A stretch of 64,000 nucleotides of DNA from Candidatus Omnitrophota bacterium (GCA_903820505.1 CAIJHQ010000045.1:79625-143624), one strand, 5' to 3'; shown: positions 4,516 through 62,014, counted from the stretch's first letter. Translations and numbers: made by a program. The notes: generated from the sequence alone by a model not told the origin.

Positions 4516-5993
4516 TTCTCTTCAAGGCGGAAGATCAGAAATGATCTGTCCGGGATCGCGACGGGTTTAAAATGCGAACGGACATAGTCCGAAAATTTTG
4601 TGGAGGCATAATACTCGGAGGGTCCGGAAATAACAAGAAATTTAGCCCCGTCCCTCCTTAACTTCTCAAGCCAGAAAATGGGATCGCCATAACCTTCCTG
4701 GAACAGCTGTTGGTGCCGCGCCTGCTTGATAAGATGCCGCCCCCCGGCTTTGGACATTCCAAGATCAAACGACCAGCCTTTCCTGTGACAATAATAAAGG
4801 AGCCCGGCACTGGGCCCGTATTGAACGATCACCACATCCTCCGGCCGTGATATCTGCTGGACAACGGAGCCGATGCGCGGCATATTGCGCTCCACCTCTG
4901 AAAACCGCGATGCCGGCGGAAGGTAATAACGCATCGCAAGCAAAATAAAGGCCCCGCAAAACAATAGTTTCACGGTGAGTCCCCAACGATCCCACAAAAG
5001 TCCCAGGAGTGACGTGATCAGGATGGCCACGGCCGGCGCCCCACAGAGTAGATAAAAAGGATGGTCCATGACCTTCTGAGGCAGAATAAGGATCAGGCTG
5101 AGGCTCCCCCACGCCCAGACCAGCAAAGCGACAGGTTCTTTCTTCAAACGGAACAAGCTGATCAACGCGAATGGAAAAAGAATCGGTGTGCACCAGTAAG
5201 TCCCGAGGATGCTTAAGATCCTCTTATAGAAATCAAAGGACTTGAACAGGGACGTGATCAAAAAGCGGCCCTCTCCGGACTGCGTAAAGAGACTTGTCTG
5301 GACATGCGCAGCGTCGTGAAATTGCAGCACATGCATCCAAAAAACCCACGCGGCGACAGGGATGGCAGCGCCGATCAAAAAAACAAACGTCGTACGAAAT
5401 GAAAATTTTTCACGGTTGATCCAGATCAAAAAAGCCGGCAGCGCGATCCCAAAATGGATGCGTGCCGTCAAGGCGAGCGAGAACACTAAGCCGCTCAGGA
5501 GGATCTTCGCCAACACGGCGGAATCCAGCAGCCAAAAGGAGAGCATTAAGAAAAAAAGAGCGGCCGCTTCATTCTGGAACGTGATCCCCGACAAAAGCAC
5601 CATCGGGAAAAAGGAAAAAAAGAATACGGTGAGGAGCGCTTTTTTTTCTGTCAAAAAACGCCGGGCGATCGGAAAGAGTAAGATCGTCGCCCCAAAGACA
5701 AAGATCCCGGCCTGGAACCTCCCCCACCACGGGATGCCGCCGCCCAGCAGGGTATTCGAAAGAAACGCGACCAGAGAACCGAACGGATAATACAGCAGGT
5801 GAAGCCCGGGAGCTCCATTGACCAGGATAAAGGTCCGCGGAATAAAAAGATCCGCGACAGAACCTCCGCCCATCATTTCCGCCATCATGGCATTAACGGC
5901 CTGATAACTCCCGAAATAACCTCCGAGCGGATTGGAAAAGGCCGGACACTTCATCATCAATGTAACGAGCGCGATTCCTAAGGAAATAAGCAT
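4512..5993 (-). CDS. GT-C glycosyltransferase, ArnT/PMT_2 (GT39/GT83)-like.
   Basis: 493 aa polytopic protein. The segment WGRFQAGIFVFGATILLFPIARRFL resembles the conserved ArnT/PMT_2 helix (aRlpsal-fg-l-vlllyllarrl). Stop overlaps the downstream GT2 start. Confidence 0.65.
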   Translation of the reverse strand: MLISLGIALVTLMMKCPAFSNPLGGYFGSYQAVNAMMAEMMGGGSVADLFIPRTFILVNGAPGLHLLYYPFGSLVAFLSNTLLGGGIPWWGRFQAGIFVFGATILLFPIARRFLTEKKALLTVFFFSFFPMVLLSGITFQNEAAALFFLMLSFWLLDSAVLAKILLSGLVFSLALTARIHFGIALPAFLIWINREKFSFRTTFVFLIGAAIPVAAWVFWMHVLQFHDAAHVQTSLFTQSGEGRFLITSLFKSFDFYKRILSILGTYWCTPILFPFALISLFRLKKEPVALLVWAWGSLSLILILPQKVMDHPFYLLCGAPAVAILITSLLGLLWDRWGLTVKLLFCGAFILLAMRYYLPPASRFSEVERNMPRIGSVVQQISRPEDVVIVQYGPSAGLLYYCHRKGWSFDLGMSKAGGRHLIKQARHQQLFQEGYGDPIFWLEKLRRDGAKFLVISGPSEYYASTKFSDYVRSHFKPVAIPDRSFLIFRLEEK

Positions 5994-39318: not shown

Positions 39319-39858
39319 CTACCGTTTCCGGGGATTTTTTAAATAAAAATAACCGATCACTGTTTTTCCGTCCTGGATCTTCCCCCGGCGGATCATACGG
39401 CCGATCTCGGACAGGCTGAATTCCCGCAACTCGAATTCCTCATCTTCATCCTTCGGCGCCGATGCCGGCCTGAGACTGGACGCGAGATAGAGGTGCATCT
39501 TCTCCCCCGAAACCCCCGGGGTCGGGAAAAAAGCGATGATCTTCTGAAGCCGGCCCGGTCTCATTCCGATCTCTTCCATCAACTCGCGTCTGGCCGCCGC
39601 GGAGAACGATTCCCCGGGTTCGCGCCCACCGGCGGGAAATTCCCAAAGGTGTTTCGCGAGGGGGAACCGGTATTGGCGCACCAGGATGTACTTTCCGGAG
39701 GCCGTCCGGGGAATGATCGCCACGCAACCGGGATGTTCCAGGACCTGCCTTGAGAGGACCTTCCCGTGCGGCGTCCGCACCCGGTAATTGACGAGGTGGA
39801 TCGGACCCTTCTTGAACAATACCTTTTTCCTGAGGATCTTATAATTTTTTTTCGTCAT
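39319..39858 (-). CDS. NUDIX hydrolase.
   Basis: Nudix box GGREPGESFSAAARRELMEEIG (GX5EX7REUXEEXGU). Confidence 0.8.
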   Translation of the reverse strand: MTKKNYKILRKKVLFKKGPIHLVNYRVRTPHGKVLSRQVLEHPGCVAIIPRTASGKYILVRQYRFPLAKHLWEFPAGGREPGESFSAAARRELMEEIGMRPGRLQKIIAFFPTPGVSGEKMHLYLASSLRPASAPKDEDEEFELREFSLSEIGRMIRRGKIQDGKTVIGYFYLKNPRKR

Positions 39859-39919: not shown

Positions 39920-41215
39920 TCAGGACAGGTCCGAAGGCTGACCGGTGGTGGAGAGCACCGCTTTCCACAACCAGCCGTTGGGATCTATGTTGCGGCGTTG
40001 GGAGGTCGCGAGCGGGATCGGAATATGCGTCGCTTCGCCTTTCCAGGCACCCACCAACATATCCGTCCGTCCGGACATCCCGGCGTGGACCGCCGAATGG
40101 CCCAAAAGCAGGCAGTACGCGGAATCATGCGCGATAGCCGGCATGCTCCGTATGGTGTAGCTCGGATCGATATATTTGACGCTCGCTTCCATGCCGGCGT
40201 TCTTGAAATAAGACTTGATCTCGTCACGCAAAAAAACGCCGATGTCCTCATGAAGAACGTTCCCCGAACGGTCCTGAACAGGTCCTCCGGCCTTTTTCAG
40301 CAGGTCCTGTCCCGCCCCTTCCGCCACCACGATCACCGCATGTGACTTGGTCTTCAAACGCTTTTCAAGGGCCCTCATGAGAGCATCGAGGCTGAAAGGG
40401 ACCTCGGGTATCAGGCAAAAATTGACCTGACTGTCCGCGAGCGTCGTAAAGGCTGCGATAAAACCGGAATCCCGTCCCATCAGCTTGACGAGCCCGATCC
40501 CGTTACGGGCGCCGGTCGCCTCGCTGTGAGCCGCGTACGTGAACCGCCGCGCTTCGCTGACCGCCGTCTCGATCCCGAATGTTTTCTGCACGAACGAAAT
40601 GTCATTGTCGATCGTTTTGGGAATGCCGACCACCGCGATCTTCAGCCCGCGCCGCGTGATCTCCTGGTAAATTTCATGAGCGCCGCGTAAGGTGCCGTCC
40701 CCGCCGAGCGTGAACAGGATCCCGATCTTGAGAGCTTCAAGCGTGTCCACCATCTCCGCCGGGTCCTGGTTCCCGCGGGAAGAACCCAGGATCGTGCCGC
40801 CCATCTCATGGATCCGGCTGACGCTTTTCGGATCGAGGTCCATCGGTTCGTTCCCGTATTTCTTCACCAGCCCTTCATAGCCGTACCGGAATCCATAAAC
40901 TTTTTTAACGCCGTATCCGTAATACAGTTCCAGCACGACGGCGCGCACCACGTCATTCAGTCCGGGACAAAGCCCCCCGCAGGACACGATCCCGCACCTC
41001 AGCTCCTTCGGATCAAAGAAGATCTTTTCCCTCGGCCCGGCCAGCTCCATGGCAGGCGGCTCCAGGCGGGCGTCCAGGTAGGGCTTGAGATCTTTCAGGC
41101 TGGAGTGATAAAGCAGGACATCGTCATCCCGGACGAATTGCCTGTTCTCAATGGGCGACGAAAAGCGGCATTCCCCGAGTTTTTTAACGCTGAAATCAAC
41201 ATTCGGTTCGTTCAT
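39920..41215 (-). CDS. 6-phosphofructokinase, long (~430 aa) form.
   Basis: Contains GGLCPGLNDVVRAVV, LGGDGTL and GIPKTIDNDI. The Gly in GGDG suggests ATP-dependence, while the Lys in PKTIDND is more typical of PPi-type enzymes. Confidence 0.8.
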   Translation of the reverse strand: MNEPNVDFSVKKLGECRFSSPIENRQFVRDDDVLLYHSSLKDLKPYLDARLEPPAMELAGPREKIFFDPKELRCGIVSCGGLCPGLNDVVRAVVLELYYGYGVKKVYGFRYGYEGLVKKYGNEPMDLDPKSVSRIHEMGGTILGSSRGNQDPAEMVDTLEALKIGILFTLGGDGTLRGAHEIYQEITRRGLKIAVVGIPKTIDNDISFVQKTFGIETAVSEARRFTYAAHSEATGARNGIGLVKLMGRDSGFIAAFTTLADSQVNFCLIPEVPFSLDALMRALEKRLKTKSHAVIVVAEGAGQDLLKKAGGPVQDRSGNVLHEDIGVFLRDEIKSYFKNAGMEASVKYIDPSYTIRSMPAIAHDSAYCLLLGHSAVHAGMSGRTDMLVGAWKGEATHIPIPLATSQRRNIDPNGWLWKAVLSTTGQPSDLS

Positions 41216-41408: not shown

Positions 41409-42002
41409 ATGAACTCGCAAAAAGTCCGGATTCTTTCCGTCTTGATCACGATCACATCGCTTCTTGTTTTCACGGGTTGTGCGACCGTGACCTCGCACTC
41501 CGACTGGGACACGTCCGCGAATTTCAGCGCCCTTCAAACCTACTCCTGGGTCCCGGGCCAGCAACCGCTCACGGGGGACGCCCGGATCGACAACAACACC
41601 CTCCTCGACCAGCGCGTCCGGCAAGCCGTTAACACCGTGCTCACGTCCAAAGGTTATATAAAGACGGACACCAATCCGGATTTCTGGGTAAGCTATTCGG
41701 CCGCGATCGAGGCAAAGATCGACGCCGTCACCATGCCTTCCTACGGCTACGCGACACCTTATGTCGGCCCCTACGGAGAAGCGCGCTATGATTACTCGGG
41801 AATGTGGAGCGGCAGCACCACATCCGTCATGCAATATGATGAAGGGTCACTGATCCTGGACGTTGCGGACGCGAAAACCCGTCGACTGATCTGGCGCGGG
41901 ACGGTCAGCGACGTTGTGGACCCGTCACGATCCCCGGAAAAGAAACAACAGATCATCGAACAGGCGATCTCGAAAGCATTCTCGGAGTTCCCGCCGCAAT
42001 AA
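41409..42002 (+). CDS. DUF4136 family lipoprotein.
   Basis: AAGGAG lies 8 nt upstream of the ATG at 41409. Signal peptide with lipobox LLVFTGC. Mature protein is ~175 aa. Confidence 0.7.
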   Translation: MNSQKVRILSVLITITSLLVFTGCATVTSHSDWDTSANFSALQTYSWVPGQQPLTGDARIDNNTLLDQRVRQAVNTVLTSKGYIKTDTNPDFWVSYSAAIEAKIDAVTMPSYGYATPYVGPYGEARYDYSGMWSGSTTSVMQYDEGSLILDVADAKTRRLIWRGTVSDVVDPSRSPEKKQQIIEQAISKAFSEFPPQ

Positions 42003-42020
42003 AGGAACGCGGGATTTTCG

Positions 42021-42055
42021 CGACGCTTCAGCTCTTCGCGTCGTGGAATTTTTTT
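42021..42055 (+). terminator. Candidate intrinsic terminator for the DUF4136 gene. It overlaps the 3' end of the convergent ppk1 gene.
   Basis: Hairpin CGACGC-(11 nt)-GCGTCG followed by TGGAATTTTTTTGG on the plus strand. On the minus strand it reads as an A-run, so it terminates only plus-strand transcription. Confidence 0.35.
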
Positions 42056-44100
42056 GGCTTTTGGGGGATCACTTCGATGGAAATCTTTTTTTTGGAGAGA
42101 GATTCGCTATCCAGCGCTTTCTGGCAGAGATACTCCTGGACCCGGAATTTCTTATCAGGACCGGCTTCTTTTTTCTGATATTCTCCGTCCGGAGATAACG
42201 TCCAGGCCTTGTTGTTATCTTTAAAGTAGAGTGACAGCAGCTGAAGAAGTTCCTTTTTATTTTTCCTGTCCTCCACGGGGAACATGAGCTCCAGTCGCCT
42301 GTCGAGGTTCCTGGGCATCCAGTCTGCGCTGGAAAGATAGACTTCTTCTTCCCCGCCGTTGAAAAAATAAAAAAGCCGGCTGTGCTCCAGGAACATATCC
42401 ACGACGCTGACCACTTCGATATTCTCGCTGAGGCCCTTGATCCCGGGCCGGAGACAGCAGATCCCGCGGACATTGAGTTTGATCCGGACCCCTTTTTGCG
42501 AGGCACGGTAAAGAGCTTCGATGATCTCCTTATCCACCAGGGAGTTCATCTTCGCCATAATGAGGCCCGGACGTTCCGGAGCGCTCTGAACGGATTCCCT
42601 CAGGATCAGCCGCAAAAGCCTGCGGCGTAATCCGTGGGGCGCCATCTCGAGTTTGGAGAAATGACCGGGACTCGAAAATCCCGTCATGACATTGAAGAAC
42701 GAACCCGCGTCCCGCGTGAATTCATCGTTGCTTGTGAAAAGATTGAGGTCCGAATAGACCTGCGCGGTTTTTTCGTTGTAGTTGCCGGTCCCGAGATGCA
42801 GATAACGCTTGATCCCCTCTGCTTCGCGGCGTATGACCAGACAAGCTTTGGCGTGCGTCTTGAGGCCGACCACTCCGTAAAGGACCGTGGCACCCGCTCT
42901 TTCAAGCCGTCTTGCCTCCTCGATGTTCAGTTCCTCATCAAATCGCGCCTTCAATTCAAGAAGTACCGTGACCTGTTTGCCTTTTTCCACCGCCTTTTCG
43001 AGTATGTTAATGACGGCGGAATTCCGTCCTATTCGATAAAGCGTCTGCTTGATGGCCAAAACATCGGGGTCTTCCGCGGCGGTCGTCAGAAAACGCAAAA
43101 AGGCTCCGAAAGAATCGTAGGGATAATGCACCAGCAGGTCTTTTTCCTTGAGAAGACCCCAAAGGTCACGGGCCTCTTCCACTTCCGCGACGGGCCTCGG
43201 CGTCCAAGCGGGACGTTTGAATTTTTCAAAGCCGGGCTGGAATGCGAGCTGGGAAATGCTTTTAAGATCGAGCTCCCCCTCGCCCCTGAAGATCATGTGT
43301 TCTTCCAGGCCCATCTTTTTCTTGAACCGCTCCGCCACATCCTTGGGAGCATCGATCTCGAGACGCACGACCGGACTTTCTCTCCGGGACCGTAACGCCT
43401 CGCTCATGATCTTCGCGAGATCCTCATCTCTTTCCTCATCGATCGTGAATTCCGCGCAACGCGTCACCCGTAACAACCCCTGCTGCCCGACCATGAAACC
43501 GGAAAAAAGCTCCCTAGCGAAAAGGCCGATCACATCTTCGATAAGAATGAACGCGTGAGCGGACCCCGAAGGGAGCGAGATCATCCGAGGATAATTTTTC
43601 GGGATCTCAACCAACGCATGGTGGAGGATCGCGGGGTTGGAGGACTCCCCGACCTCAAAGACACGGTAGAGAGTGAGGTTTGAGAGGTTCGGAAACGGCT
43701 GTTCGTCATGGATCGCCAGCGGGGTCAGGAGCGGGAGAAGTTCTTTGGTAAAAAGATTTTTCACATACGCGAACTGCTTTTCGTCCAGATTCGGGGGAAG
43801 AACCCTCACAATACCCGCTTCCGCAAGACCGGAAGCCAAAAGCTCCTTGAAAGAAAGATGCTGTTTGCGGATCAGATCGAACGCCTGCCGGTAGATCTCG
43901 GGAAGCCGCGGATCCGTTTCGGGAAGGCTGGCGACCCGGACCATGAAGAATTCGTCGAAATTGGAGCTGACGATCCCGAGAAACTTCAGACGCTCCAGGG
44001 CGGGGTTCGAAGGGTCCATGCCCTCGGCCAACACGCGGGCGTTGAAACGGATCCAGGATAGTTCGCGGTCAAAATATTTTTCCTGAGAGGGAGTGTCCAT
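42028..44100 (-). CDS. ppk1: Polyphosphate kinase 1.
   Basis: 690 aa. Begins YFDRELSWIRFNARVLAEG (PPK N-terminus). Two PLD-like HKD-type C-terminal domains. ATG start. Confidence 0.9.
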   Translation of the reverse strand: MDTPSQEKYFDRELSWIRFNARVLAEGMDPSNPALERLKFLGIVSSNFDEFFMVRVASLPETDPRLPEIYRQAFDLIRKQHLSFKELLASGLAEAGIVRVLPPNLDEKQFAYVKNLFTKELLPLLTPLAIHDEQPFPNLSNLTLYRVFEVGESSNPAILHHALVEIPKNYPRMISLPSGSAHAFILIEDVIGLFARELFSGFMVGQQGLLRVTRCAEFTIDEERDEDLAKIMSEALRSRRESPVVRLEIDAPKDVAERFKKKMGLEEHMIFRGEGELDLKSISQLAFQPGFEKFKRPAWTPRPVAEVEEARDLWGLLKEKDLLVHYPYDSFGAFLRFLTTAAEDPDVLAIKQTLYRIGRNSAVINILEKAVEKGKQVTVLLELKARFDEELNIEEARRLERAGATVLYGVVGLKTHAKACLVIRREAEGIKRYLHLGTGNYNEKTAQVYSDLNLFTSNDEFTRDAGSFFNVMTGFSSPGHFSKLEMAPHGLRRRLLRLILRESVQSAPERPGLIMAKMNSLVDKEIIEALYRASQKGVRIKLNVRGICCLRPGIKGLSENIEVVSVVDMFLEHSRLFYFFNGGEEEVYLSSADWMPRNLDRRLELMFPVEDRKNKKELLQLLSLYFKDNNKAWTLSPDGEYQKKEAGPDKKFRVQEYLCQKALDSESLSKKKISIEVIPQKPKKFHDAKS

Positions 44101-44106
44101 AAGGTC

Positions 44107-45669
44107 TTAGGGTGAAGGGGCCGCGCCTTGCTTCAGGTCGATGGACGCTCCGAAAACATCGGCGAACATGTCCCCCTTGTTGTGAAGACTTTCCCGTTCC
44201 AGGGAAATGTCCCCGATCTCTTTGGGGACCCAGATGGCATAGGCGGCCTCGGCACGCTCAAGAGTGAACGTCCTGACCTTTTGCTGGTGGCTTGTGTCCA
44301 AAGCGTCCGCGACCCTTAAAATGGCGGCGAGTTTGGAGACCACGGCACGGTCCGATTTTGTGAGCGACATGTAGGGAAGATGGGTCTCCCGCGGAGGCAC
44401 GCGCCGGTGGTACCGGGCGACGTTGGCGACGATGTTCTTGTCGGTTCGCCGTAATCCGAAGATCTCGGCGGCGTCCACAAGATAAAATGAATGCTTATGA
44501 TGCCCCGCCGGAGAAATATAAGTGCCGATATCATGAAGGACCCCCGAGACCTCGAGCAGCAACCGCTCGCGCGGCCCCATGCCGTGATCCTGCTGAAGCA
44601 GATCAAAAAGTTTGACGGCAAGGGACGCCACGTTCGACGCGTGACTTTTTTCGAACATATATTTCGCGCCGAGATGATACGCGGAATTCAGCACCTGACG
44701 CGAAACATCGGTCCTGCGATATCCGGAAAAAAACTGCGCCAGTTCGAGCAGGAGGCCGTCCCGGATGCTCAGCATCGGAATGATGATCTCTTCCGCTTTT
44801 GTCTCCGCCAGGAAATTCGAATAAAAAAGGACCGACGGATAAACGGATTCGGCCTGTCCATAATCCAGGTTGTAGTGGCTCACGATCTCTTCCGGCGTCA
44901 TCTTCCCGATCTTGGCCAAAAAATTCAGGAACTCTTTCTTGCCGAGGATCGTAAAACGCTCCTGCGTCTCCGGAAGCAATTGCTGGGACACAAAGCGCAT
45001 ATCCCCGCCCAAAGCGATGAACGTGTCGATCTGGTCCATCCGGACTTCGCGCGCCGCGTGCTGGGCGATCTCGCGAATGCTTCGTTTCAGGACGCGCTGC
45101 ACCAACGCGGCATCCGCCTTTCCGCTCAACGCCTGTTCCGGAAGGCGCACCGAACCTATCGGCAGGGTCCGCGTCACCCCCACCTCGCCCTGGTTCATAA
45201 TGATCATCTCGGTGCTCCCGGAACCGACTTCCACGATCAAACAGTTCCGTTTCTGGAGGTCGATCTTTCCTTCCAGTGCATGTTCCACCGCGATTAATTC
45301 CAGCCGGTTCTCTTCGGCGCCTTCCAGGACCTCGACATCGATCCCCGTACGCACATACACCTGGTCGATGAAATTGTCGCGGTTCTGCGCTTCCCGGACC
45401 GCGCTCGTGGCGATCGCCTGGATCTTCTTGATCCCGTACGTATCGATCACGGACCTGAAGCCTTTCAGGATATTCACGCCCTGGCGCATGACGGTATTAC
45501 TGAGACGGCCCGTTTTGAAAACATCCTTGCCGAAACTCACGGGCTTCTGAAGATGCTCCAGATACCGGATCTCGTTCCTGGGGCCCACCTCCGCGATCAC
45601 CATGCGAATCGCGATCGTACCGATATCGATCACCGCCACCGTGTTTTTTTGGATCTCCGCGTCCGGCAT
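44107..45669 (-). CDS. ppx: Exopolyphosphatase / guanosine pentaphosphate phosphohydrolase (Ppx/GppA) with a C-terminal HD domain.
   Basis: Begins AVIDIGTIAIRMVIAEV (ASKHA fold). The C-terminal region has the HD motif in VLHDIG. The start is taken as the ATG at 45669 (MPDAEIQ...), which overlaps the upstream stop by 1 nt. Confidence 0.85.
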   Translation of the reverse strand: MPDAEIQKNTVAVIDIGTIAIRMVIAEVGPRNEIRYLEHLQKPVSFGKDVFKTGRLSNTVMRQGVNILKGFRSVIDTYGIKKIQAIATSAVREAQNRDNFIDQVYVRTGIDVEVLEGAEENRLELIAVEHALEGKIDLQKRNCLIVEVGSGSTEMIIMNQGEVGVTRTLPIGSVRLPEQALSGKADAALVQRVLKRSIREIAQHAAREVRMDQIDTFIALGGDMRFVSQQLLPETQERFTILGKKEFLNFLAKIGKMTPEEIVSHYNLDYGQAESVYPSVLFYSNFLAETKAEEIIIPMLSIRDGLLLELAQFFSGYRRTDVSRQVLNSAYHLGAKYMFEKSHASNVASLAVKLFDLLQQDHGMGPRERLLLEVSGVLHDIGTYISPAGHHKHSFYLVDAAEIFGLRRTDKNIVANVARYHRRVPPRETHLPYMSLTKSDRAVVSKLAAILRVADALDTSHQQKVRTFTLERAEAAYAIWVPKEIGDISLERESLHNKGDMFADVFGASIDLKQGAAPSP

Positions 45670-46670
45670 TACCAAAAGGTCCTTTCTTTTTTGAAATAAA
45701 AATCACGGGCGAGCCTCGCCGCGCCCTTCACGACCGCATAATCCTTCAGCTTCGACGGAACGACTTTCACCGATCCCACCAGGGGCTTCAGAAGACATTC
45801 TTCCATGACTCGGCGCGCTTCAGGAAGGATCAAATGCTCCATCGCTTCGATCATCCCGCCCCCCAGCACGATCATCTCGGGATTCAGGATGTTCGCGAGA
45901 TTCGCCATGACGATCCCGAGCATTTTCCCTTTGTCCAGGACCAACCCTTTGACCGCTTTATCCCCGCCCTCGATCGCGCGGAGCAAAGTCCGGCTTTTGA
46001 TCTTTTTGATATTGTAACCGACCTCGTCGAACAGATGCGGGGCTTTTTGTTTCAATAGCAGCAGTGCGGCTTCTGCGGTCACTCCGAGGCGCCCCAGAGA
46101 CGCCCCCACGGTTTCAAAAATACCGTGCCCCTGAAGAAAGGACGGCATCGACACAAGCGTATGCCCGATCTCTCCGGCACTTCCCGTAGCTCCCCGGTAA
46201 AGCTTCCCGTCCATGATCAGCGCTCCCCCGACGCCCGTCCCGAGAAAGATCCCGATCACATGCTGCCTTTTTCTTGCGACGCCCAATTTGTATTCCCCAT
46301 AAAGCCCCGCGTTCGCGTCATTTTCGAGCAGGACGGGAGCCTTGAGATATTTTGAAAGTTTTGCCTGCAGGGGATAGTTCTTCAGAAAAGAGATGTTGTT
46401 GGATAACTTCACGATACCCTTGGGACACCTGATAATACCGGGGCATCCTACGCCGGCCACCAGGACATTCTTGGAAGTAATGCGTCCTTCTTCCAAAAGA
46501 ACCTCGATCCCGCCGAAAAGGGTCCTCAGAAAGGCCTTTTCGCCCTGGTTCCCGTCGACCTCGGCCTTGTATTCCCGGCAAACCCGGAAATTCTTGTCCA
46601 AAAGCCCCATCAGGACTTTTGTCCCGCCGAGATCGATCCCGATCATGTATTTCTTTTTTTTACCCGCCAT
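45669..46670 (-). CDS. ROK-family sugar kinase (glucokinase-like), a candidate polyphosphate/ATP glucokinase.
   Basis: Begins MIGIDLGGTKV and contains LENDANAGLYGEY and GTGVGGALI, with the Zn-binding CPG...C...H region typical of ROK kinases. GGAGG sits 5 nt upstream of the ATG at 46670. The ORF track starts at 46724. Confidence 0.8.
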   Translation of the reverse strand: MAGKKKKYMIGIDLGGTKVLMGLLDKNFRVCREYKAEVDGNQGEKAFLRTLFGGIEVLLEEGRITSKNVLVAGVGCPGIIRCPKGIVKLSNNISFLKNYPLQAKLSKYLKAPVLLENDANAGLYGEYKLGVARKRQHVIGIFLGTGVGGALIMDGKLYRGATGSAGEIGHTLVSMPSFLQGHGIFETVGASLGRLGVTAEAALLLLKQKAPHLFDEVGYNIKKIKSRTLLRAIEGGDKAVKGLVLDKGKMLGIVMANLANILNPEMIVLGGGMIEAMEHLILPEARRVMEECLLKPLVGSVKVVPSKLKDYAVVKGAARLARDFYFKKERTFW

Positions 46671-46813
46671 ACCGCCTCCGCGAGAATCCGGACCCGAAAA
46701 AAGACCGGAGAAAATGAACGACAACCGGACCGGAACCAGTACCGTGTCTTATTAATTTTAAGGGTACACGGCATAGTACTGCGAACCCGTAAAATTTACT
46801 GTAACGCAGTCTA

Positions 46814-47671
46814 TTAGTAAACCGCCGGTATGAATCTTTGTTTGCTCAAGGGCGGCCTCTTATACCCCTTGTCCTTCTGCCGCTTCGGGATCACGAGTTT
46901 CTTTTGAGTCACATCCTTATAGGGGATGCGGGACAAAAGATGCGCCATGCAATTGAGCCGCGCGCGTTTTTTATCGTTCGCGTCCACCACGTACCAGGGA
47001 GAATGCTTGGTGTCTGTGTATTCGAACATCACGTCCTTGGCCTTGGAGTACTCCACCCAGCGCGCCCGGGCTTCGAGGTCCATCGGGCTGAGCTTCCAGC
47101 GGCGTGCCGGATCCTTGAACCTCTCCTGGAACCGCGCTTCCTGAACATCGTCACTGACCGAGAACCAGTATTTGATGAGGATGACCCCGGCATGGATCAG
47201 CGCCTTCTCGAATTCGGGACAGAAATGCAGAAATTCCATGTATTCCTCGTCCGTGCAAAAGCCCATCACGTGCTCGACGCCCGCACGGTTGTACCAGCTG
47301 CGGTCGAAAAGCACCATCTCGCCGGCCGCCGGAAGATACGCGGCGTAACGCTGAAAATACCACTGCGTTTTTTCCCGCTCGGTGGGAGTCCCCAAGGCCG
47401 CGATCCTGACAATACGGGGATTCGTACGGGTTGACAGCCGCTTGATCACGCCCCCCTTGCCGGCCGCGTCGCGCCCTTCAAAAAGCACCACCACTTTCAG
47501 ACCCTTAAGCTTGATCCATTCCTGCAACTTGACCATTTCGGTCTGCAGCCGCTCGATCTCTTTGTTGTAGACCTTGTTTTTGAGTTTCTTGGGCAGGCCA
47601 TCGAGTTTCCCGGATCTTTTTTTCAGGACCTTTTTCATTGTCTCTTTCATTCGTTTTTCCTTCTTGCTCAT
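46814..47671 (-). CDS. ppk2: Polyphosphate kinase 2.
   Basis: Walker A-like FEGRDAAGKGG, plus DRSWYNR and a lid region. About 285 aa, single-domain PPK2. Confidence 0.9.
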   Translation of the reverse strand: MSKKEKRMKETMKKVLKKRSGKLDGLPKKLKNKVYNKEIERLQTEMVKLQEWIKLKGLKVVVLFEGRDAAGKGGVIKRLSTRTNPRIVRIAALGTPTEREKTQWYFQRYAAYLPAAGEMVLFDRSWYNRAGVEHVMGFCTDEEYMEFLHFCPEFEKALIHAGVILIKYWFSVSDDVQEARFQERFKDPARRWKLSPMDLEARARWVEYSKAKDVMFEYTDTKHSPWYVVDANDKKRARLNCMAHLLSRIPYKDVTQKKLVIPKRQKDKGYKRPPLSKQRFIPAVY

Positions 47672-47775
47672 GGGAGCCCTCCTGCAGCTTGCACCTTTTA
47701 TTCGTTCCGGACCGGATCATCCAGGCCCGTATCAGAAATACTTCTTCCCCACCCCTAAAATGCGGCTGCGGAACC

Positions 47776-48342
47776 CTAATTCCCGAGAAGCCCTTTGGCG
47801 AACTCCTTGTTGGGCGGATATTTCAGCCAGACCATAAAAAGGGCCTCGGTGAAATCCTGCCCTTTGATCACGGCCTTGGATTCGCCCCGGACGATGATCT
47901 CGACCTGCTCGTCCGTGAAGGAATAGACCATCTCCTCCCCTTTTTTCATATCGTTCATTGCGGCCATCAACTGCGGGATCCGGTCCTTGATCACGGGATA
48001 TTCCCTGGAAACCTTTGCCAGACCCTTCTGCCACGCTTCCCGGGATTGTTCCGCGCTGACGTCCCGCTGGAATTTCATCACCAGCTTCTTCGTCCCCTTC
48101 GACTGGATCAGCTGGTCCGCATCGTTGGTTTTCACCGGAACATAAAGCCCCGCAACGTAGACCCGGACCTTCGCGATCGTTGCAAATCTCGGACCGAGCC
48201 CGTTCAACACCAGGACCTCCTGCCCCGACGCCTGGATCGAATCCGGGAATTCCACACCCTCGAAATCGGCCGCCATCCCATGGCCGGCCGCCAGACACTG
48301 GATCGCCACCGCCAACGAAATCCCCATGATCTTCTTCAGCAT
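47776..48342 (-). CDS. Chalcone-isomerase-like (CHI-fold) secreted protein.
   Basis: Signal peptide MLKKIMGISLAVAIQCLAAGHG. The remainder resembles the bacterial Chalcone_3/CHI-like fold (VLVLNGLGPRFATIAKVRVYVAGLY). The start is placed at the internal ATG at 48342. Confidence 0.55.
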   Translation of the reverse strand: MLKKIMGISLAVAIQCLAAGHGMAADFEGVEFPDSIQASGQEVLVLNGLGPRFATIAKVRVYVAGLYVPVKTNDADQLIQSKGTKKLVMKFQRDVSAEQSREAWQKGLAKVSREYPVIKDRIPQLMAAMNDMKKGEEMVYSFTDEQVEIIVRGESKAVIKGQDFTEALFMVWLKYPPNKEFAKGLLGN

Positions 48343-56868: not shown

Positions 56869-57507
56869 TTACCTCTTGGAGACCAACTCTTTCAGGTCAT
56901 TCTCGAACTCCGCCAGGATCCCGCACAATTCCTTGTTCCAGCTCTCCGCAAGGCTCTGGGGAGAAATGCGGTCCATAGGCATCTCCCGGCTGTAGACCTT
57001 CTGAAAAACCACTTCCGACGAGTCCTGCCCGGCCTCACTGACCGTCAGTTTCATACGCAAGACCGCTTTCGGGGCGTTCGGGTCGCGGTAATCGCCGTAG
57101 AGGTCCGTCAAAGTCCCGTCCACACAATAGCATGGGCTGGCCGTCTCGCCGGGTTTCAACACGAACCGGACAAGCGGCGAGCCCTTGAGCCACGCAGCCG
57201 CCTGATCGCGGATCAGCTCCGCCGGAGCCGCCACGAACTGGTTATAAAAATCGGATTCATAGACTGCTTCTCCGGTCCGGTAAGCCAGGTAGCGGTCCGC
57301 GGACTGCGGTGCCGCGGAAAAAGCGTTCATCCTCAGCGAAACAGGCGTTCCGGAGTAATCCCCGTGGGCTTGAGAACTCACGTCCAGGGAGTAGGTCCTG
57401 ACATCCGGGTAACTCCGGTTGAGCCGGACGCAGCCGGCGGTCAAAGAGCAGATGCCCGCGATCGCAAGGAACGCGGAAAGTAGTTTGAAGGGATCGTTCT
57501 TTTTCAT
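56869..57507 (-). CDS. ABC-transport auxiliary lipoprotein (PqiC/YmbA-like, DUF330).
   Basis: Lipobox LTAGC. About 190 aa mature. Sits immediately downstream of MCE, ATPase and permease genes. Confidence 0.6.
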   Translation of the reverse strand: MKKNDPFKLLSAFLAIAGICSLTAGCVRLNRSYPDVRTYSLDVSSQAHGDYSGTPVSLRMNAFSAAPQSADRYLAYRTGEAVYESDFYNQFVAAPAELIRDQAAAWLKGSPLVRFVLKPGETASPCYCVDGTLTDLYGDYRDPNAPKAVLRMKLTVSEAGQDSSEVVFQKVYSREMPMDRISPQSLAESWNKELCGILAEFENDLKELVSKR

Positions 57508-58274
57508 CGGTCAAACCTCGATTTGGGTGGCGCCTCGCCAAGGATCATTTGCGAAGGATATTTTTTTCCCGTTGAAGTGATGTCTTCGATATTTTTGGCA
57601 ATGACCTCCACGCGCGGCAGGACGGCGTCCAGTTTAATCACAAGCGACGGCATTTCCCGCGAGGCTTTGTTCATGTTCTCGATCATGGGATAGATATCGC
57701 TGTCCATTTTGTTCAACAACTTATCCATCGAGTCATTGAACCGGCTGGCCACGCTCGGCGCGGACGGGATATAAAGGTCCTTGGGGTCCCACGAGATCTT
57801 CATCGGCGGCGGGACCTCTTTGGGGTCCGCGAACCCGAGTTCCAGATAAACAAGCCCCGTGATCCCGATCCCGATCATCTTCGCCCTGAGGGTGTACTTC
57901 GCGACCATGATATCCAGTAGCTCCTGGGCCTCGTCCACGCTTTTGTCCTTAAATCGCGGAAAATATTTCTTTTCGACCTCGAACTTGACCCCGATCATGT
58001 TGTAATGCGCCGCCGTGTTCTCGAGCGACTGGTCTTTGCCGTACTCATCCTTGATGAATACGATCTCGCGCACCTTGCCGATCTTGACGCCGTTGAACTT
58101 CACGGGCGCCCCGACGTCCAACCCCTGGACCGACTGCGCGAAATAAGTCTCGCAGAGCAGCGGCGGCGCCTGAAAAGCGGAGCCCGCACCGAACAGGATC
58201 AGCCCGGCGCACAAAAGTACCAGGGAGATCAGGGTAAAGAGACCAATCTTAAAATACCGCGTTTTCTCGCTCAT
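57504..58274 (-). CDS. MCE-domain protein (MlaD-like).
   Basis: N-terminal TM anchor followed by an MCE domain (VKFNGVKIGKVREI). The start is taken at the internal ATG (MSEKTRYF). Confidence 0.8.
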   Translation of the reverse strand: MSEKTRYFKIGLFTLISLVLLCAGLILFGAGSAFQAPPLLCETYFAQSVQGLDVGAPVKFNGVKIGKVREIVFIKDEYGKDQSLENTAAHYNMIGVKFEVEKKYFPRFKDKSVDEAQELLDIMVAKYTLRAKMIGIGITGLVYLELGFADPKEVPPPMKISWDPKDLYIPSAPSVASRFNDSMDKLLNKMDSDIYPMIENMNKASREMPSLVIKLDAVLPRVEVIAKNIEDITSTGKKYPSQMILGEAPPKSRFDR

Positions 58275-58327
58275 GTTTATTCTCCCTAGGGACAAGTCTT
58301 TACTGAAACCCTGTCTATGATCATGGT

Positions 58328-59101
58328 TTAAAGTTCATCCTTGGAAACCTGCCGGTTGAAGAATTTTCTCACATTCTCATTTTCTGCGTGCTCTTTCAGA
58401 TATTTGGGGTCGCCCTCGGCAATGATCTTCTTCGTCTTCTTGTCGAGCATGATGATCCGGTCGGCGATCGAATAAATACTGTCCAGTTCGTGCGTGACGA
58501 TCACGAAAGTGATGCCGAGGTTTTTGGCCAGGTTCAGGATCAATTGATCAAGCTCCGCGGACGTAATGGGGTCCAGACCCGCCGAAGGCTCGTCCAGAAA
58601 GAGGATCTTGGGGTCAAGCGCCATCGCCCGCGCGATCGCCGCGCGTTTCTGCATCCCGCCGGAGATCTCGGAAGGCATGTGGTGTTCAAATCCCTGGAGG
58701 CCGACCAGCATCAGTTTCAAGGCGGCCACGGATTCCCGCGCGGCCTCGGGAAGCTCCGTGAATTCCTCGAGGGGAAGCATCACGTTCTCCAGAAGGTTCA
58801 TGGAACCGAACAGGGCGCCGCTTTGATACATCACGCCGATGCGGTTGAGGATCTCGAGCCTCTTCGTCCCGTCGGCCGACGCAATGTCATCTTGCTCGAT
58901 CAGGATCTTTCCGGCTTTTGGCTTATAAAGCCCGATCATGTGTTTCAAAAGAGTGCTCTTCCCGCAACCCGATCCGCCGAGGATCACGAACACTTCCCCT
59001 CTTTTGATATTGAATGAAATGTCGTCAAAAATGAGGTCCGTGCCGTAACTCGCCGTCAGGTTCGTGACTTCGATGATCTCTTCCGTTTGAGTCCGGACCA
59101 T
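58328..59101 (-). CDS. ABC transporter ATP-binding protein, MlaF-like.
   Basis: Walker A GGSGCGKST, signature ISGGMQKRAAIARA, Walker B LFLDEPSAGLD. Confidence 0.85.
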   Translation of the reverse strand: MVRTQTEEIIEVTNLTASYGTDLIFDDISFNIKRGEVFVILGGSGCGKSTLLKHMIGLYKPKAGKILIEQDDIASADGTKRLEILNRIGVMYQSGALFGSMNLLENVMLPLEEFTELPEAARESVAALKLMLVGLQGFEHHMPSEISGGMQKRAAIARAMALDPKILFLDEPSAGLDPITSAELDQLILNLAKNLGITFVIVTHELDSIYSIADRIIMLDKKTKKIIAEGDPKYLKEHAENENVRKFFNRQVSKDEL

Positions 59102-59104
59102 GCC

Positions 59105-60244
59105 TTAGATCCCCAACGCGTAATAGATGGCCGAAATGACGCCGTCCAGAATTATGATCATGACCATGCCGGTAACGACCGAGGAGGTCGTGGATTCGCC
59201 CACCGCGGAAGCGCCCGTTTTGGTTTGAAGCCCGCGCAAGCACCCGATCCCCCCGATCGCGATCGCGAACGGGATCGCCTTGAAGATCCCGCCCAACACA
59301 TCGCCCAGGTCCACGGTGGACGTGATCTGATTCAGATAGGTCGCCGAAGAATACCCGAACGACTGGAACACGATCGCGCCCCCGAGCATCCCGAAGAAAT
59401 CGGAAACGACCGTCAGAAGCGGCGCCAGAAAAACGATCCCGAGCATGCGGCTGATCACAAGGAACCTCACCGGCTCCAGTCCCATGGTCGTCAGGGCGTT
59501 GACCTCCTCGTTGATCTTCATGGTCCCGATCTCGGCGGCGATGGCCGAACCGGTCCGCCCCGCGAGAATGATCGCCGTGATGAGAGGCCCGAGTTCCCGC
59601 AGGACCGCGAAGGCGACCACGTTCGCCACAAAAACATCCGAACCCATCTGCTTCAGAGGAAGCGCGGACTGGAACGCCATGATGACCCCGATCAGGAACC
59701 CGGCCATCATGATGAGCGGCATCGCGTTCGCGCCGCCCTTCTCGATAAATACCCAGACGTCTTTCCACCGGACGGTCCCCGGATGCAGGATGGCGTTGAA
59801 CATTTGGCTGACCACCTCACCGACAAAGGTGATCTGCCCGAAAAAATCGTCACGGAGCTGGACAACGGATTTTCCAAAACTCTCGAAGAACCCGACCCTC
59901 GCCGGCGGCTTGGAGGACACCTCCTGCGCGCTGCGGCGGTTTACAAAGTCGAACAGGGTCTGCAGATCGGGACGGAGTCCAAGTACTTGAAAGGCGGCCC
60001 TCGCGGATTCCTGGGACGCTTTGAGGTCCCGAATCAGCCCGATGCCTGCCATATCGCAATAAGTCAGGCCTGAAACATCCAGGACCAATTCTCGTGGCTT
60101 GGCGGTCTGAAGCAGCGTCATGGACTCCTGCCAGACATCGCCGGAGGTCTTTGCGCTGAAAATCCCTGAAAGCAGAAGAAGTAACTTTTCGCCCTTGGGG
60201 TCTTTCCTGATCTCGAGTTTTAGAGCCGGATCCGTCTTCGTCAT
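59105..60244 (-). CDS. MlaE-type ABC permease with an N-terminal STAS domain.
   Basis: The N-terminal ~100 aa are STAS-like (LVLDVSGLTYCDMAGIGLI). The C-terminal ~260 aa form an MlaE/Ttg2B-like permease with 5-6 TM helices. Confidence 0.8.
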   Translation of the reverse strand: MTKTDPALKLEIRKDPKGEKLLLLLSGIFSAKTSGDVWQESMTLLQTAKPRELVLDVSGLTYCDMAGIGLIRDLKASQESARAAFQVLGLRPDLQTLFDFVNRRSAQEVSSKPPARVGFFESFGKSVVQLRDDFFGQITFVGEVVSQMFNAILHPGTVRWKDVWVFIEKGGANAMPLIMMAGFLIGVIMAFQSALPLKQMGSDVFVANVVAFAVLRELGPLITAIILAGRTGSAIAAEIGTMKINEEVNALTTMGLEPVRFLVISRMLGIVFLAPLLTVVSDFFGMLGGAIVFQSFGYSSATYLNQITSTVDLGDVLGGIFKAIPFAIAIGGIGCLRGLQTKTGASAVGESTTSSVVTGMVMIIILDGVISAIYYALGI

Positions 60245-60367
60245 ATTAGTTCCCTGGAAAAAAGCGGTGAATAGGACCGATCCATGCTAATTCCGTGAAA
60301 GGTTTCTGTAAAAATTCAAGAACGCCGGTTTTTGCGACCGTTGCCGGACCCGTGTATTGAAAAAAAA

Positions 60368-60450: not shown

Positions 60451-61365
60451 TTAGATTTTACAGATTTTTTTCAAAACTTCCAGCCGTTTGTCGAAATGCT
60501 CACGCTTCACTTCGCGCAGTCTCTCGAGGCCGAATTTCTCGACCGTGAATGACGCCACGATCGTACCGTATGCGATCGCCGTCTTCATCGTCTTGAGGTT
60601 CACGTTGCGCGCCGCCGTCAAATACCCCATCACGCCGCCCGCGAAACTGTCCCCGGCCCCCGTCGGATCATAGACCGAGTCGAGAGGATAAGCCGGATAA
60701 ATAAAAACGCCTTCATGACTGTACAGGAGCGCGCCGTGCTCGCCTTTCTTGATGATCACATATTCCGGCCCCATGTTATGGATATGCTGGGCCGCCTTGA
60801 TCAAATTCACTTCTTCGGTCAACTGCCGCGCCTCTCCGTCGTTCATGAAAACCGCGTGGACGCGGCTGAGGACCTTTTGCACCGCGTCGCGCTTGTTCTG
60901 GATCCAGAAGTTCATGGTGTCGCAGGCCACGAATTTGAGCGAGGAACCGTGGACCTGGTCCAGCACGCTGAGCTGAAGGTCCGGATCGACGTTCGCCAGG
61001 AACACATATTCCGGGACCTTTTCATAGAGGATCTTGGGTTTGAAATCCAGCAGGACGTTCAGGTCCGTCTGGAGCGTGATGGCCGCGTTCATGTCGGCCT
61101 CGTACTTCCCTTTCCAGTGGAACGTCTTGCCCGGCAAAACTTCCAGATGGCTCAGATCGATCCCTTTTTCCTCGAGGACTTTGCGGTACTCCTCCGGAAA
61201 ATCCTTGCCGACCACCGCCACCACGCCGACGCGGGTAAAAAAACTGGCGGCATACGAAAAAAAGGACGCGGAACCGCCGAACACGGTTTGTTTGGACCCG
61301 AAAGGCGTGGAGAGTTCGTCGATCGCGACAGTTCCAATAACGATCAGAGAGGGCGGCTTTGACAT
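60451..61365 (-). CDS. PfkB-family carbohydrate kinase (ribokinase fold), possibly a heptose-7-phosphate kinase (HldE domain I-like).
   Basis: Contains GAGDSFAGGVMGY (PfkB GAGD motif) and an N-terminal LIVIGTVAIDE region. The heptose-pathway gene context supports the assignment. Confidence 0.7.
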   Translation of the reverse strand: MSKPPSLIVIGTVAIDELSTPFGSKQTVFGGSASFFSYAASFFTRVGVVAVVGKDFPEEYRKVLEEKGIDLSHLEVLPGKTFHWKGKYEADMNAAITLQTDLNVLLDFKPKILYEKVPEYVFLANVDPDLQLSVLDQVHGSSLKFVACDTMNFWIQNKRDAVQKVLSRVHAVFMNDGEARQLTEEVNLIKAAQHIHNMGPEYVIIKKGEHGALLYSHEGVFIYPAYPLDSVYDPTGAGDSFAGGVMGYLTAARNVNLKTMKTAIAYGTIVASFTVEKFGLERLREVKREHFDKRLEVLKKICKI

Positions 61366-61369
61366 GGTG

Positions 61370-62014
61370 TTATCCTTCAAGTAGTTTTTTCAATTGATAA
61401 GCGGCTTTTTCAGGGTCTTTCGCGGCAAAGATCGCGCGCACCACGGCGACCCTTGTCGCGCCGGCCGCGAGCAACCGCGGCAAATTCTCGGGGCCGATCC
61501 CGCCGATCGCGACCCACGGGATGCGGATCCTTTCTTTCGCTTCCTTTATGAAATCAAGACCTAGCGCCCGCACCTGCGGTTTTACCGGCGTCGCGAACAC
61601 CGGGCCGACACCCAGAAGATCGGCACCTTCCTTGACCGCTTTCACGGCTTGCGCGATATCGTGGACCGACTTTCCGATCCACAGCCGGTGTCCCGTCCTT
61701 TTGGCAAGCGCCCGCGCCCTCGCGACCGGCATATCTTCCTGCCCGAGATGGACACCGTCCGCCGAGGTCACCAAGGCGACATCGACCCGGTCGTTCACTA
61801 CGAACAATTTCCGCAGACTCGTCGCGATCTTCCGGACCTTTGTCCCGAGCCGGATCAGCGCGGCGTCCGGAAGACATTTGGCGCGCAGCTGAACGACATC
61901 CGCCCCGCCCCGGTACGCCTGCTCGATCTTCTTCAGGAACGTTTCGTCCCCGGTCGCAAGATCGGTCACCGCGTAAAGCCGGAAATCCCTGCGAGCCCTT
62001 TCTTTCCAGTCCAT
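61370..62014 (-). CDS. thiE: Thiamine-phosphate synthase.
   Basis: Motifs LYAVTD, VVQLRAK, VNDRVDVAL and DGVHLGQED, as in the TMP-TENI family. Confidence 0.85.
   Translation of the reverse strand: MDWKERARRDFRLYAVTDLATGDETFLKKIEQAYRGGADVVQLRAKCLPDAALIRLGTKVRKIATSLRKLFVVNDRVDVALVTSADGVHLGQEDMPVARARALAKRTGHRLWIGKSVHDIAQAVKAVKEGADLLGVGPVFATPVKPQVRALGLDFIKEAKERIRIPWVAIGGIGPENLPRLLAAGATRVAVVRAIFAAKDPEKAAYQLKKLLEG

Follow-up and report, generated by a model that had tools for sequence, protein, structure and literature searches.

Polyphosphate (polyP)-dependent phosphorylation of glucose has been attributed to a small subfamily of ROK proteins, the polyphosphate glucokinases (PPGKs), found mainly in Actinobacteria and in a few other groups. 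Here we describe a locus in a 64,000-nucleotide stretch of DNA from a Candidatus Omnitrophota bacterium (GCA_903820505.1, CAIJHQ010000045.1:79625-143624; the whole stretch is referred to as the window), in which a gene for a glucokinase-type ROK hexose kinase is followed by genes for an exopolyphosphatase (ppx) and polyphosphate kinase 1 (ppk1), with a gene for polyphosphate kinase 2 (ppk2) on its other side. All four proteins come from known families; what is new is the conserved operon architecture and a distinct ROK clade with recurrent loss of the zinc site. Because polyP glucokinases have already been characterised in diderms, in Methylomonas (PMC6406325) and Anabaena (PMC4252912), such an enzyme in a diderm is not new in itself. 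In our incomplete coverage of the literature, we found no description of a GlcK-type ROK gene heading ppx or ppx-ppk1 operons, or of its PHO-type control.

PPGKs and polyP glucomannokinases (PPGMKs), represented by Arthrobacter 1WOQ, M. tuberculosis Rv2702, Anabaena All1371 and Methylomonas polyP-Glk, share with the ROK protein of the window the ROK/ASKHA fold, the catalytic Asp, an ExGH motif and the lack of a helix-turn-helix (HTH) domain. The zinc motif CXCGXXGCXE is absent from both, and the spending of polyP on hexose phosphorylation would be a shared role. PPGKs are short proteins of ~26-30 kDa without this motif (PMC6406325, PMC4252912), and the motif is missing from all characterised polyP-Glks (PMC6406325). 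Unlike them, the window protein belongs to a different clade, is ~70-90 residues longer, and has lost the zinc site secondarily within its own clade. No report of characterised PPGK genes fused into ppx-ppk1 operons was found in the literature.

The ROK ATP glucokinases of the B. subtilis GlcK type (E. faecalis 2QM1, S. griseus 3VGK, T. thermophilus 3VOV) resemble the window protein in length, domain order, and catalytic and sugar-binding residues. They differ from it in that the window protein scores under the TIGR00744 cut-off, has no zinc site, is strongly basic with a basic helix region, and belongs to a clade linked to ppx-ppk1, a linkage seen at none of 70 other GlcK loci among the matches listed. 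In Microlunatus phosphovorus, one of the polyphosphate-accumulating Actinobacteria, a polyP glucokinase reportedly occurs alongside polyP and glycogen. The physiological logic is the same here, with a glucose kinase gene found together with polyP genes and, in the relatives L084 and L088, with glycogen genes, but the kinase family and the phylum differ, and the coupling is hard-wired as one operon. The E. coli-type ppk-ppx operon, which belongs to the Pho regulon, is similar in that ppk1 and the gene for a long Ppx, with ASKHA and HD-like domains, form one tight unit, and in its use of direct repeats with 11-bp periodicity for what is, in our locus, probable phosphate-responsive control. In the locus described here, however, ppx precedes ppk1, a sugar kinase gene leads, and the putative PHO box follows the Bacillus pattern TT(A/T/C)ACA (PMC11870197) and not CTGTCAT.

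The ROK-ppx-ppk1 module and its conservation

The initial annotation placed four co-directional open reading frames (ORFs) at 42028-47671. All four were found there, on the minus strand, and their identities are borne out by Pfam and NCBIfam profile scores. The features of the locus are as follows.

46814..47671, minus strand: ppk2, encoding a single-domain (class I type) polyphosphate kinase 2 of 285 aa (Pfam PPK2, 331.9 bits)
46788..46805, minus strand: degenerate PHO-box-like direct repeat GTTACA-N6-TTTACG in the ppk2-ROK intergenic region
45669..46670, minus strand: gene for a ROK-family hexose kinase, glucokinase-type, of 333 aa (Pfam ROK, 164.9 bits)
44107..45669, minus strand: ppx, encoding a long exopolyphosphatase of 520 aa with Ppx/GppA ASKHA domains and HD-like domain III
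42028..44100, minus strand: ppk1, encoding a polyphosphate kinase 1 of 690 aa with all four PPK1 Pfam domains

The ROK stop codon and the ppx start codon share one base (TAATG), and the gap between ppx and ppk1 is 6 nt (GACCTT), both as first described; the gap between ppk2 and the ROK gene is 143 nt. Ppx is predicted to be translationally coupled to ROK through the TAATG overlap.

The ROK, Ppx and PPK1 genes stand in this order in all seven Omnitrophota relatives that were looked up (47-100% identity), often with overlapping junctions. A metagenome scan with a clade-specific sub-alignment yielded 23 Omnitrophota-type lineages, each <90% identical to the others. ppx lies directly 3' of the ROK gene in every one of the 22 evaluable lineages, down to 44% identity, and ppk1 is the next gene after ppx in all 16 lineages with at least 2.5 kb of flank. 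The genes that surround the module differ between relatives. ROK homologues at 50-58% identity carry the names Candidatus Omnitrophica or Omnitrophota.

The background and outgroup set came from a profile scan of genome contigs with the full ROK alignment; statements about it concern the matches listed, with no Omnitrophota among them. The complete ROK-ppx-ppk1 triad also occurs in Fibrobacterota (L003), Planctomycetota (L005, L008, L011) and Kiritimatiellia (L009). A gene for a short Ppx/GppA protein (~315-350 aa) comes immediately after the ROK gene in Verrucomicrobiota and Armatimonadota, with no ppk1 (L017, 3882-4928; L024; L029, 5954-6955, with a 4-nt overlap; L030, 11005-11952; L051, ~2324-3202), and 19 further metagenome loci are organised in the same way (e.g., L112, L143, L151). 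These short Ppx proteins of Verrucomicrobiota and Armatimonadota have a canonical DxGTNS loop and no HD domain. No Ppx or PPK1 homologue was found in the flanks of 70 other ROK glucokinase loci, which come from Actinomycetota, Bacillota, Chloroflexota, Gastranaerophilales, Muribaculaceae and other groups. A neighbour-joining tree, built without support values, places all full-triad loci in one clade, to which the S. griseus and E. faecalis enzymes do not belong; the Verrucomicrobiota pairs fall in a neighbouring clade, and L051 falls elsewhere.

The initial annotation had tied the ROK gene to polyP genes on the basis of its placement. That tie extends to a conserved order of ROK, ppx and often ppk1 across Omnitrophota and at least five other phyla, and this order is absent at the 70 other loci. 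Gene order thus makes a functional link of ROK to polyP well supported. The ROK->ppx->ppk1 module is ancient and tightly packed, and its ROK proteins form a distinct clade, spanning Omnitrophota, the Planctomycetota-Verrucomicrobiota-Chlamydiota (PVC) phyla and Fibrobacterota, in which the ROK gene lies beside ppx. Judged from its distribution, ROK-Ppx is the deepest (oldest) conserved pair, and ROK-ppx-ppk1 is the Omnitrophota/PVC form.

The same does not hold for ppk2, which the initial annotation had counted as part of a four-gene operon. ppk2 adjoins the ROK gene in the window's own lineage only, across the 143 nt that hold the PHO-box-like repeat, and it was not found within the fetched flanks of ROK in any other Omnitrophota-type lineage. 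Even L090, whose ROK is 88% identical, has no ppk2 beside the ROK gene, and its neighbours are otherwise unrelated. The locus is better described, from these comparisons, as a three-gene module with a recently acquired, polyP-using neighbour.

The partners of ROK are clear members of their families. PPK2 scores 360.3 bits with TIGR03707 (cut-off 301.8) and has one PPK2 domain, at residues 30-256 of 285. PPK1 scores 766.7 bits with TIGR03705 (cut-off 465.85), with the PP_kinase_N, PP_kinase, C_1 and C domains all present. Ppx scores above the gathering scores of Pfam Ppx-GppA (134.4 bits) and Ppx-GppA_III (92.8 bits) and matches the solved exopolyphosphatase 8JGO end to end (residues 10-508, 6.4e-47); it falls below the NCBIfam exopolyphosphatase cut-off (TIGR03706, 173 bits vs 307). 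Its phosphate-1 loop reads DIGTIA (residues 13-20, window 45610-45640) and does not match the canonical DxG(S/T)NS, which is present in the PPX of E. coli and D. radiodurans. In the Omnitrophota relatives, the Ppx loop is DIG(T/S)SA.

The ROK protein among known sugar kinases

The ROK gene most likely starts at the ATG at 46670 (MAGKKKKYMIGIDLGGTK), which has GGAGG upstream, and the 333-aa product is identical to database protein P0001. The match to Pfam ROK (PF00480), at 164.9 bits against a gathering score of 22.9, spans residues 28-341 of the 351-aa ORF (10-323 of 333). The 23-sequence alignment shows no variation at the metal-binding Asp or in the phosphate-1 loop (D13, G15, G16, T17 and K18), nor at N117 and D118, which form the catalytic pair. 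G144, T145 and G146 of the phosphate-2 loop are equally invariant, as are E167 and H170, which bind the sugar, and G270-272 of the LGGG adenosine motif. The ASKHA nucleotide motifs DxGGT, GTGxGG and LGGG are all intact. Structural and mutational work on NagK, another ROK kinase, found the equivalent residues to be essential (PMC10031466). Given that the catalytic and sugar-binding residues are invariant and match the NagK essentials, ROK is almost certainly an active sugar kinase.

Just nine residues lie ahead of the phosphate-1 strand, which leaves no room for an HTH domain, and the NagC and Mlc models begin to match only at their positions 77 and 89, respectively, in agreement with the earlier observation that no N-terminal HTH is present. 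A NagC/Mlc-type repressor is rejected, since the winged-helix domain is absent and only the sugar-binding parts of those models match.

The initial annotation suggested kinship of this protein with the actinobacterial PPGKs; hidden Markov model (HMM), PDB and fold comparisons all point instead to ATP glucokinases, a grouping that the initial annotation had itself named as counting against its proposal. The best NCBIfam model is that of the GlcK-type glucokinases (TIGR00744, 157.1 bits, under the cut-off of 260.35), and no NCBIfam equivalog scores ROK above its cut-off. With the PPGK model NF045942, ROK reaches 41.6 bits where 250 are needed, and the match is confined to profile positions 3-148 of 242, the N-terminal half. 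Among PDB sequences, 2QM1 (117 bits), 3VGK (100 bits) and then 3VOV lead, in the range 117-97 bits and at 27-29% identity; the polyP/ATP glucomannokinase 1WOQ scores 40 bits, again over the N-terminal half only. In a Foldseek search with the ROK model, 2QM1 and 3VGK take ranks 1-5 (TM 0.81), and 1WOQ is at rank 49. The tree nests the window ROK among GlcK-type ROKs, far from 1WOQ. A Trp193/Trp198 region and a phosphate-3 motif have been described for PPGK (PMC4252912); no alignment with ROK reaches past the phosphate-2 motif, and ROK has no Trp pair in the corresponding region. The ROK chain is 333 aa (~36 kDa), compared with roughly 240-270 aa for PPGKs. By HMM, PDB, fold and tree, ROK is placed outside the PPGK family.

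The structural zinc motif GHx(9-11)CxCGxxGCxE is not found in ROK, where the site (window 46100-46170, residues ~168-190) reads GEIGHTLVSMPSFLQGHGIFETV, with no Cys; a Glu is retained at or near the GCxE position. CxCGxxGC is gone in 16 of the 23 Omnitrophota-type lineages and retained in 7, and the motif has been lost separately in several Planctomycetota relatives (L002, L004, L005, L006, L008, L050). The 1WOQ sequence likewise lacks it. Because basal members of ROK's own clade retain the motif (e.g., P0099, P0113), its loss here is convergent with that in PPGKs. An AlphaFold model of ROK has an overall pLDDT of 89.9 and pTM of 0.89, and is least confident at residues 161-190, the former zinc loop (pLDDT 65-69).

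ROK is also strongly basic, with an isoelectric point (pI) of 9.7 and a net charge of +20. Among the 37 long ORFs of the window, PPK2 ranks first in positive charge density (+9.5 net charges/100 aa) and ROK second (+6.0), and the PFK, GltB, PPK1 and Ppx proteins are near neutral. A polybasic ROK N-terminus occurs in 23/23 lineages, and the protein has a clade-specific basic helix region (LKQKAP...KKIKS).

Regulation and neighbouring genes

A direct repeat, TTTACA-N5-TTTACA, lies 50-93 nt upstream of the ROK gene on the coding strand in 11 of the 23 lineages, with at least 10 of 12 positions matching (L090, at 5376-5392; L091, L093, L094, L096, L098, L099, L104, L105, L084, L086). Over 1000 dinucleotide shuffles, the mean was 0.25 and the highest value 4, in a test that is partly circular since the motif was defined on those sequences. 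The same repeat occurs 110-121 nt upstream of phosphate-porin (Porin_5) genes at all three loci having one (L088, 1926-1953; L089, 915-931; L095, 10628 and 10760), which is evidence independent of the ROK upstream regions. The PHO box of Bacillus (B. subtilis) and Lacticaseibacillus (L. paracasei) is built of TT(A/T/C)ACA units with 11-bp periodicity, as at the pstS site tttacacaatctttaca (PMC11870197), and TTTACA-N5-TTTACA matches this published box. The repeat may be the Pho box of this phylum. In the window, GTTACA-N6-TTTACG, just after the ppk2 stop codon, has two mismatches and a 6-nt spacer and is possibly a remnant of the operon's phosphate-responsive promoter. Weighing against phosphate control are the first sighting of the motif by eye in the very upstream regions later tested, and the number of PHO-like matches in the window, which is not above chance (4 vs 1.75 expected). 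Scans of 41800-48000 for sigma-70 promoters and intrinsic terminators gave no excess over shuffles, and RNA folding of the ppk2-ROK gap is not unusual (z = -1.5).

In many relatives, the module sits behind a Bacillus-type PHO box or straight after pstSCAB-phoU. Other genes near it in relatives, again linked to phosphate or polyP, encode CHAD and CYTH-CHAD proteins, porins of the O/P family and a histidine phosphatase. CHAD or CYTH-CHAD genes lie at 7175-7921 in L086, 7059-7856 in L087 and 12597-14060 in L088, and a small His_Phos_1 gene (~165-169 aa) recurs beside the module in L084 and L086-L089. Neither the CHAD/CYTH-CHAD nor the His_Phos_1 genes are present at the window's own locus. Genes for glycogen phosphorylase, GH57 branching enzymes and DUF4912 flank the module in L084 (480-8760) and L088 (14727-16996), which hints that glycogen and polyP stores may be handled jointly in some relatives.

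The window was also said to encode a pyrophosphate (PPi)-type pfkA and a long phosphofructokinase (PFK). The PPi-type signature does occur, in a truncated PFK, and the long PFK, of 431 aa, matches an ATP-PFK equivalog. This 431-aa protein, encoded beside the module at 39920-41215, scores 635 with NF005301 against a cut-off of 400 and combines G104 (GGDGT) with K124 (PKTIDND); since it passes NF005301, it is probably ATP-dependent despite the PPi-like residue 124. A NUDIX hydrolase gene follows it at ~39319-39858. The second PFK gene, on the minus strand from 63099 to beyond 64000, runs off the window end; its product has GGEDT and PKTIDND and best matches TIGR02483 ('PFK_mixed'). The D104/K124 combination in PFK is associated with PPi use, so a PPi-type enzyme is plausible from this signature. 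A PfkB-family carbohydrate kinase gene (60451-61380) adjoins it.

A second match to the repeat in the window (TTTACA-N5-TTTACA with 2 mismatches, 60296-60312) lies upstream of the MlaE gene and is probably due to chance. This gene is part of an operon for MlaE (with an N-terminal STAS domain), MlaF and MlaD, which function in outer-membrane lipid asymmetry (57504-60244, minus strand); given the MlaEFD operon in the window, a diderm envelope fits, and the window is assigned to an Omnitrophota-like diderm.

The phosphoryl donor

We propose that the ROK-ppx-ppk1 module is phosphate-regulated, and that ROK would transfer phosphoryl groups from the polyP store to glucose or a closely related hexose. 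ROK would accept polyP directly as donor, possibly alongside nucleoside triphosphates (NTPs), and would thus be an independently evolved functional analogue of PPGK. Ppx would free inorganic phosphate from the same polymer, and PPK1 would build polyP or run in reverse. Direct polyP use, with ROK as the sugar-phosphorylating arm of the module, is our tentative reading, a serious possibility that we stop short of calling probable. It is consistent with a linkage to ppx, whose product hydrolyses polyP, that persists at loci lacking a PPK gene, with the Pho-type context, with the absence of CXCGXXGCXE, as in all characterised polyP-Glks (PMC6406325), and with the polybasic N-terminus in all 23 lineages and a charge density second among the 37 ORFs. 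Moreover, donor plasticity exists within the ROK family, where an ADP-dependent glucokinase is known (PMC3766608).

Several observations weigh against direct polyP use. The nearest characterised enzymes by sequence and fold are ATP-dependent glucokinases, and nothing argues against NTP use because the ASKHA nucleotide motifs are intact. To our knowledge, polyP use has no recognised sequence signature except in the PPGK clade, and ROK does not align over the region specific to PPGKs. The basic charge lends weak support, as part of it is background in a window whose ORFs have a median pI of 8.6, and as the PPGMK of known structure is acidic. Loss of the zinc motif is not tied to ppx linkage, since 7 of the 23 lineages in the linked clade retain the motif, and a Planctomycetota ROK sub-clade (L002, L004, L006, L050) has lost the linkage to ppx.

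The strongest alternative is that ROK is a conventional glucokinase using NTP (ATP or GTP), possibly the only hexokinase of the cell, whose gene shares a transcription unit with ppx and ppk1 so that the three are co-regulated. NTP would be regenerated from polyP by PPK2 or by the reverse reaction of PPK1, and ROK would then spend it, so that polyP energy would reach glucose only indirectly; in a variant, glycolytic ATP would feed PPK1. We take this seriously, again without regarding it as probable. The top HMM, PDB and fold matches are all ATP glucokinases and the nucleotide motifs are intact, the glycogen genes beside the module in L084 and L088 and the PFK nearby in the window fit a plain glycolytic role, and ppk1 in the operon and the class I-type ppk2 found here can supply NTP from polyP. 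A GTP-dependent glucokinase of Fibrobacter succinogenes was reportedly described by Glass and Sherwood in 1994, with no established link to this ROK clade. However, NTP supply leaves unexplained the conserved, often overlapping linkage to ppx, whose product destroys polyP without yielding NTP, and the Verrucomicrobiota pair consists of ROK and Ppx with no ppk1 at all. Glucokinase genes at the 70 other loci show no such linkage, and membership in a Pho-type regulon would be unusual for a housekeeping glucokinase.

A different role for ROK, on another substrate (a hexose or amino sugar) or mainly as a partner or modulator of Ppx, with which it shares the ASKHA fold, is unlikely. It would account for a protein that lies below all NCBIfam equivalog cut-offs, that of the glucokinase subfamily included (157 vs 260), and in which the zinc loop that shapes the sugar site has been lost and is modelled with low confidence (residues 161-190). 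Moreover, ROK and Ppx make up the deepest pairing, and the stop codon of one gene often overlaps the start codon of the next, suggesting matched expression. Against such a role stands the invariance, across the clade, of the residues for catalysis (Asp), metal binding (Asp), phosphate binding (Thr/Lys) and sugar binding (N/D/E/H), with roles as in PMC10031466. In addition, the Glu is kept at or near the GCxE position, and there is no DNA-binding domain.

That ROK is a divergent member of the known PPGK/PPGMK family (EC 2.7.1.63), as in Actinobacteria, Anabaena and Methylomonas, is very improbable. It belongs to the ROK superfamily, lacks CXCGXXGCXE as PPGKs do (PMC6406325), and stands in a polyP context, but membership is effectively refuted by HMM, fold and tree: NF045942 reaches 41.6 of the 250 bits needed, over the N-terminal half only, 1WOQ scores 40 bits and ranks 49 by fold, the chain is 333 aa against roughly 240-270, the zinc-motif loss is convergent, and the tree nests ROK among GlcK-type ROKs. 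A chance or recent adjacency without functional meaning is hardly credible for ROK-ppx-ppk1, since the order recurs in every evaluable relative (22/22 lineages, and five further phyla) with flanks that differ everywhere, and is rejected there; it stands for ppk2 only, indeed a recent, lineage-specific neighbour.

Taking direct polyP use one step further, the ROKs that head ppx(-ppk1) operons in Omnitrophota, the PVC phyla, Fibrobacterota and Armatimonadota might constitute a second, independently evolved lineage of polyP-dependent hexokinases, derived from GlcK-type ATP glucokinases and not from the PPGK clade, under Pho control and possibly in complex with Ppx. We regard this broader proposal as somewhat doubtful. 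Across at least six phyla, mostly of uncultured diderms, ROKs of a clade other than that of the PPGKs are hard-wired to exopolyphosphatase and PPK1. The operon and the clade raise the hypothesis of a second origin of polyP-linked hexose phosphorylation, and they suggest an unrecognised route from stored polyP to sugar phosphate. If ROK uses polyP, the activity would have arisen convergently and the operon would follow a new logic; the clade would also provide new enzymes for ATP-free sugar phosphorylation. If a second polyP-hexokinase lineage exists, direct transfer from polyP to sugar would be far commoner among diderms than has been thought. If, on the other hand, ROK uses NTP only, the pairing of a glucokinase with Ppx would point to an unrecognised regulatory coupling between carbon entry and phosphate storage.

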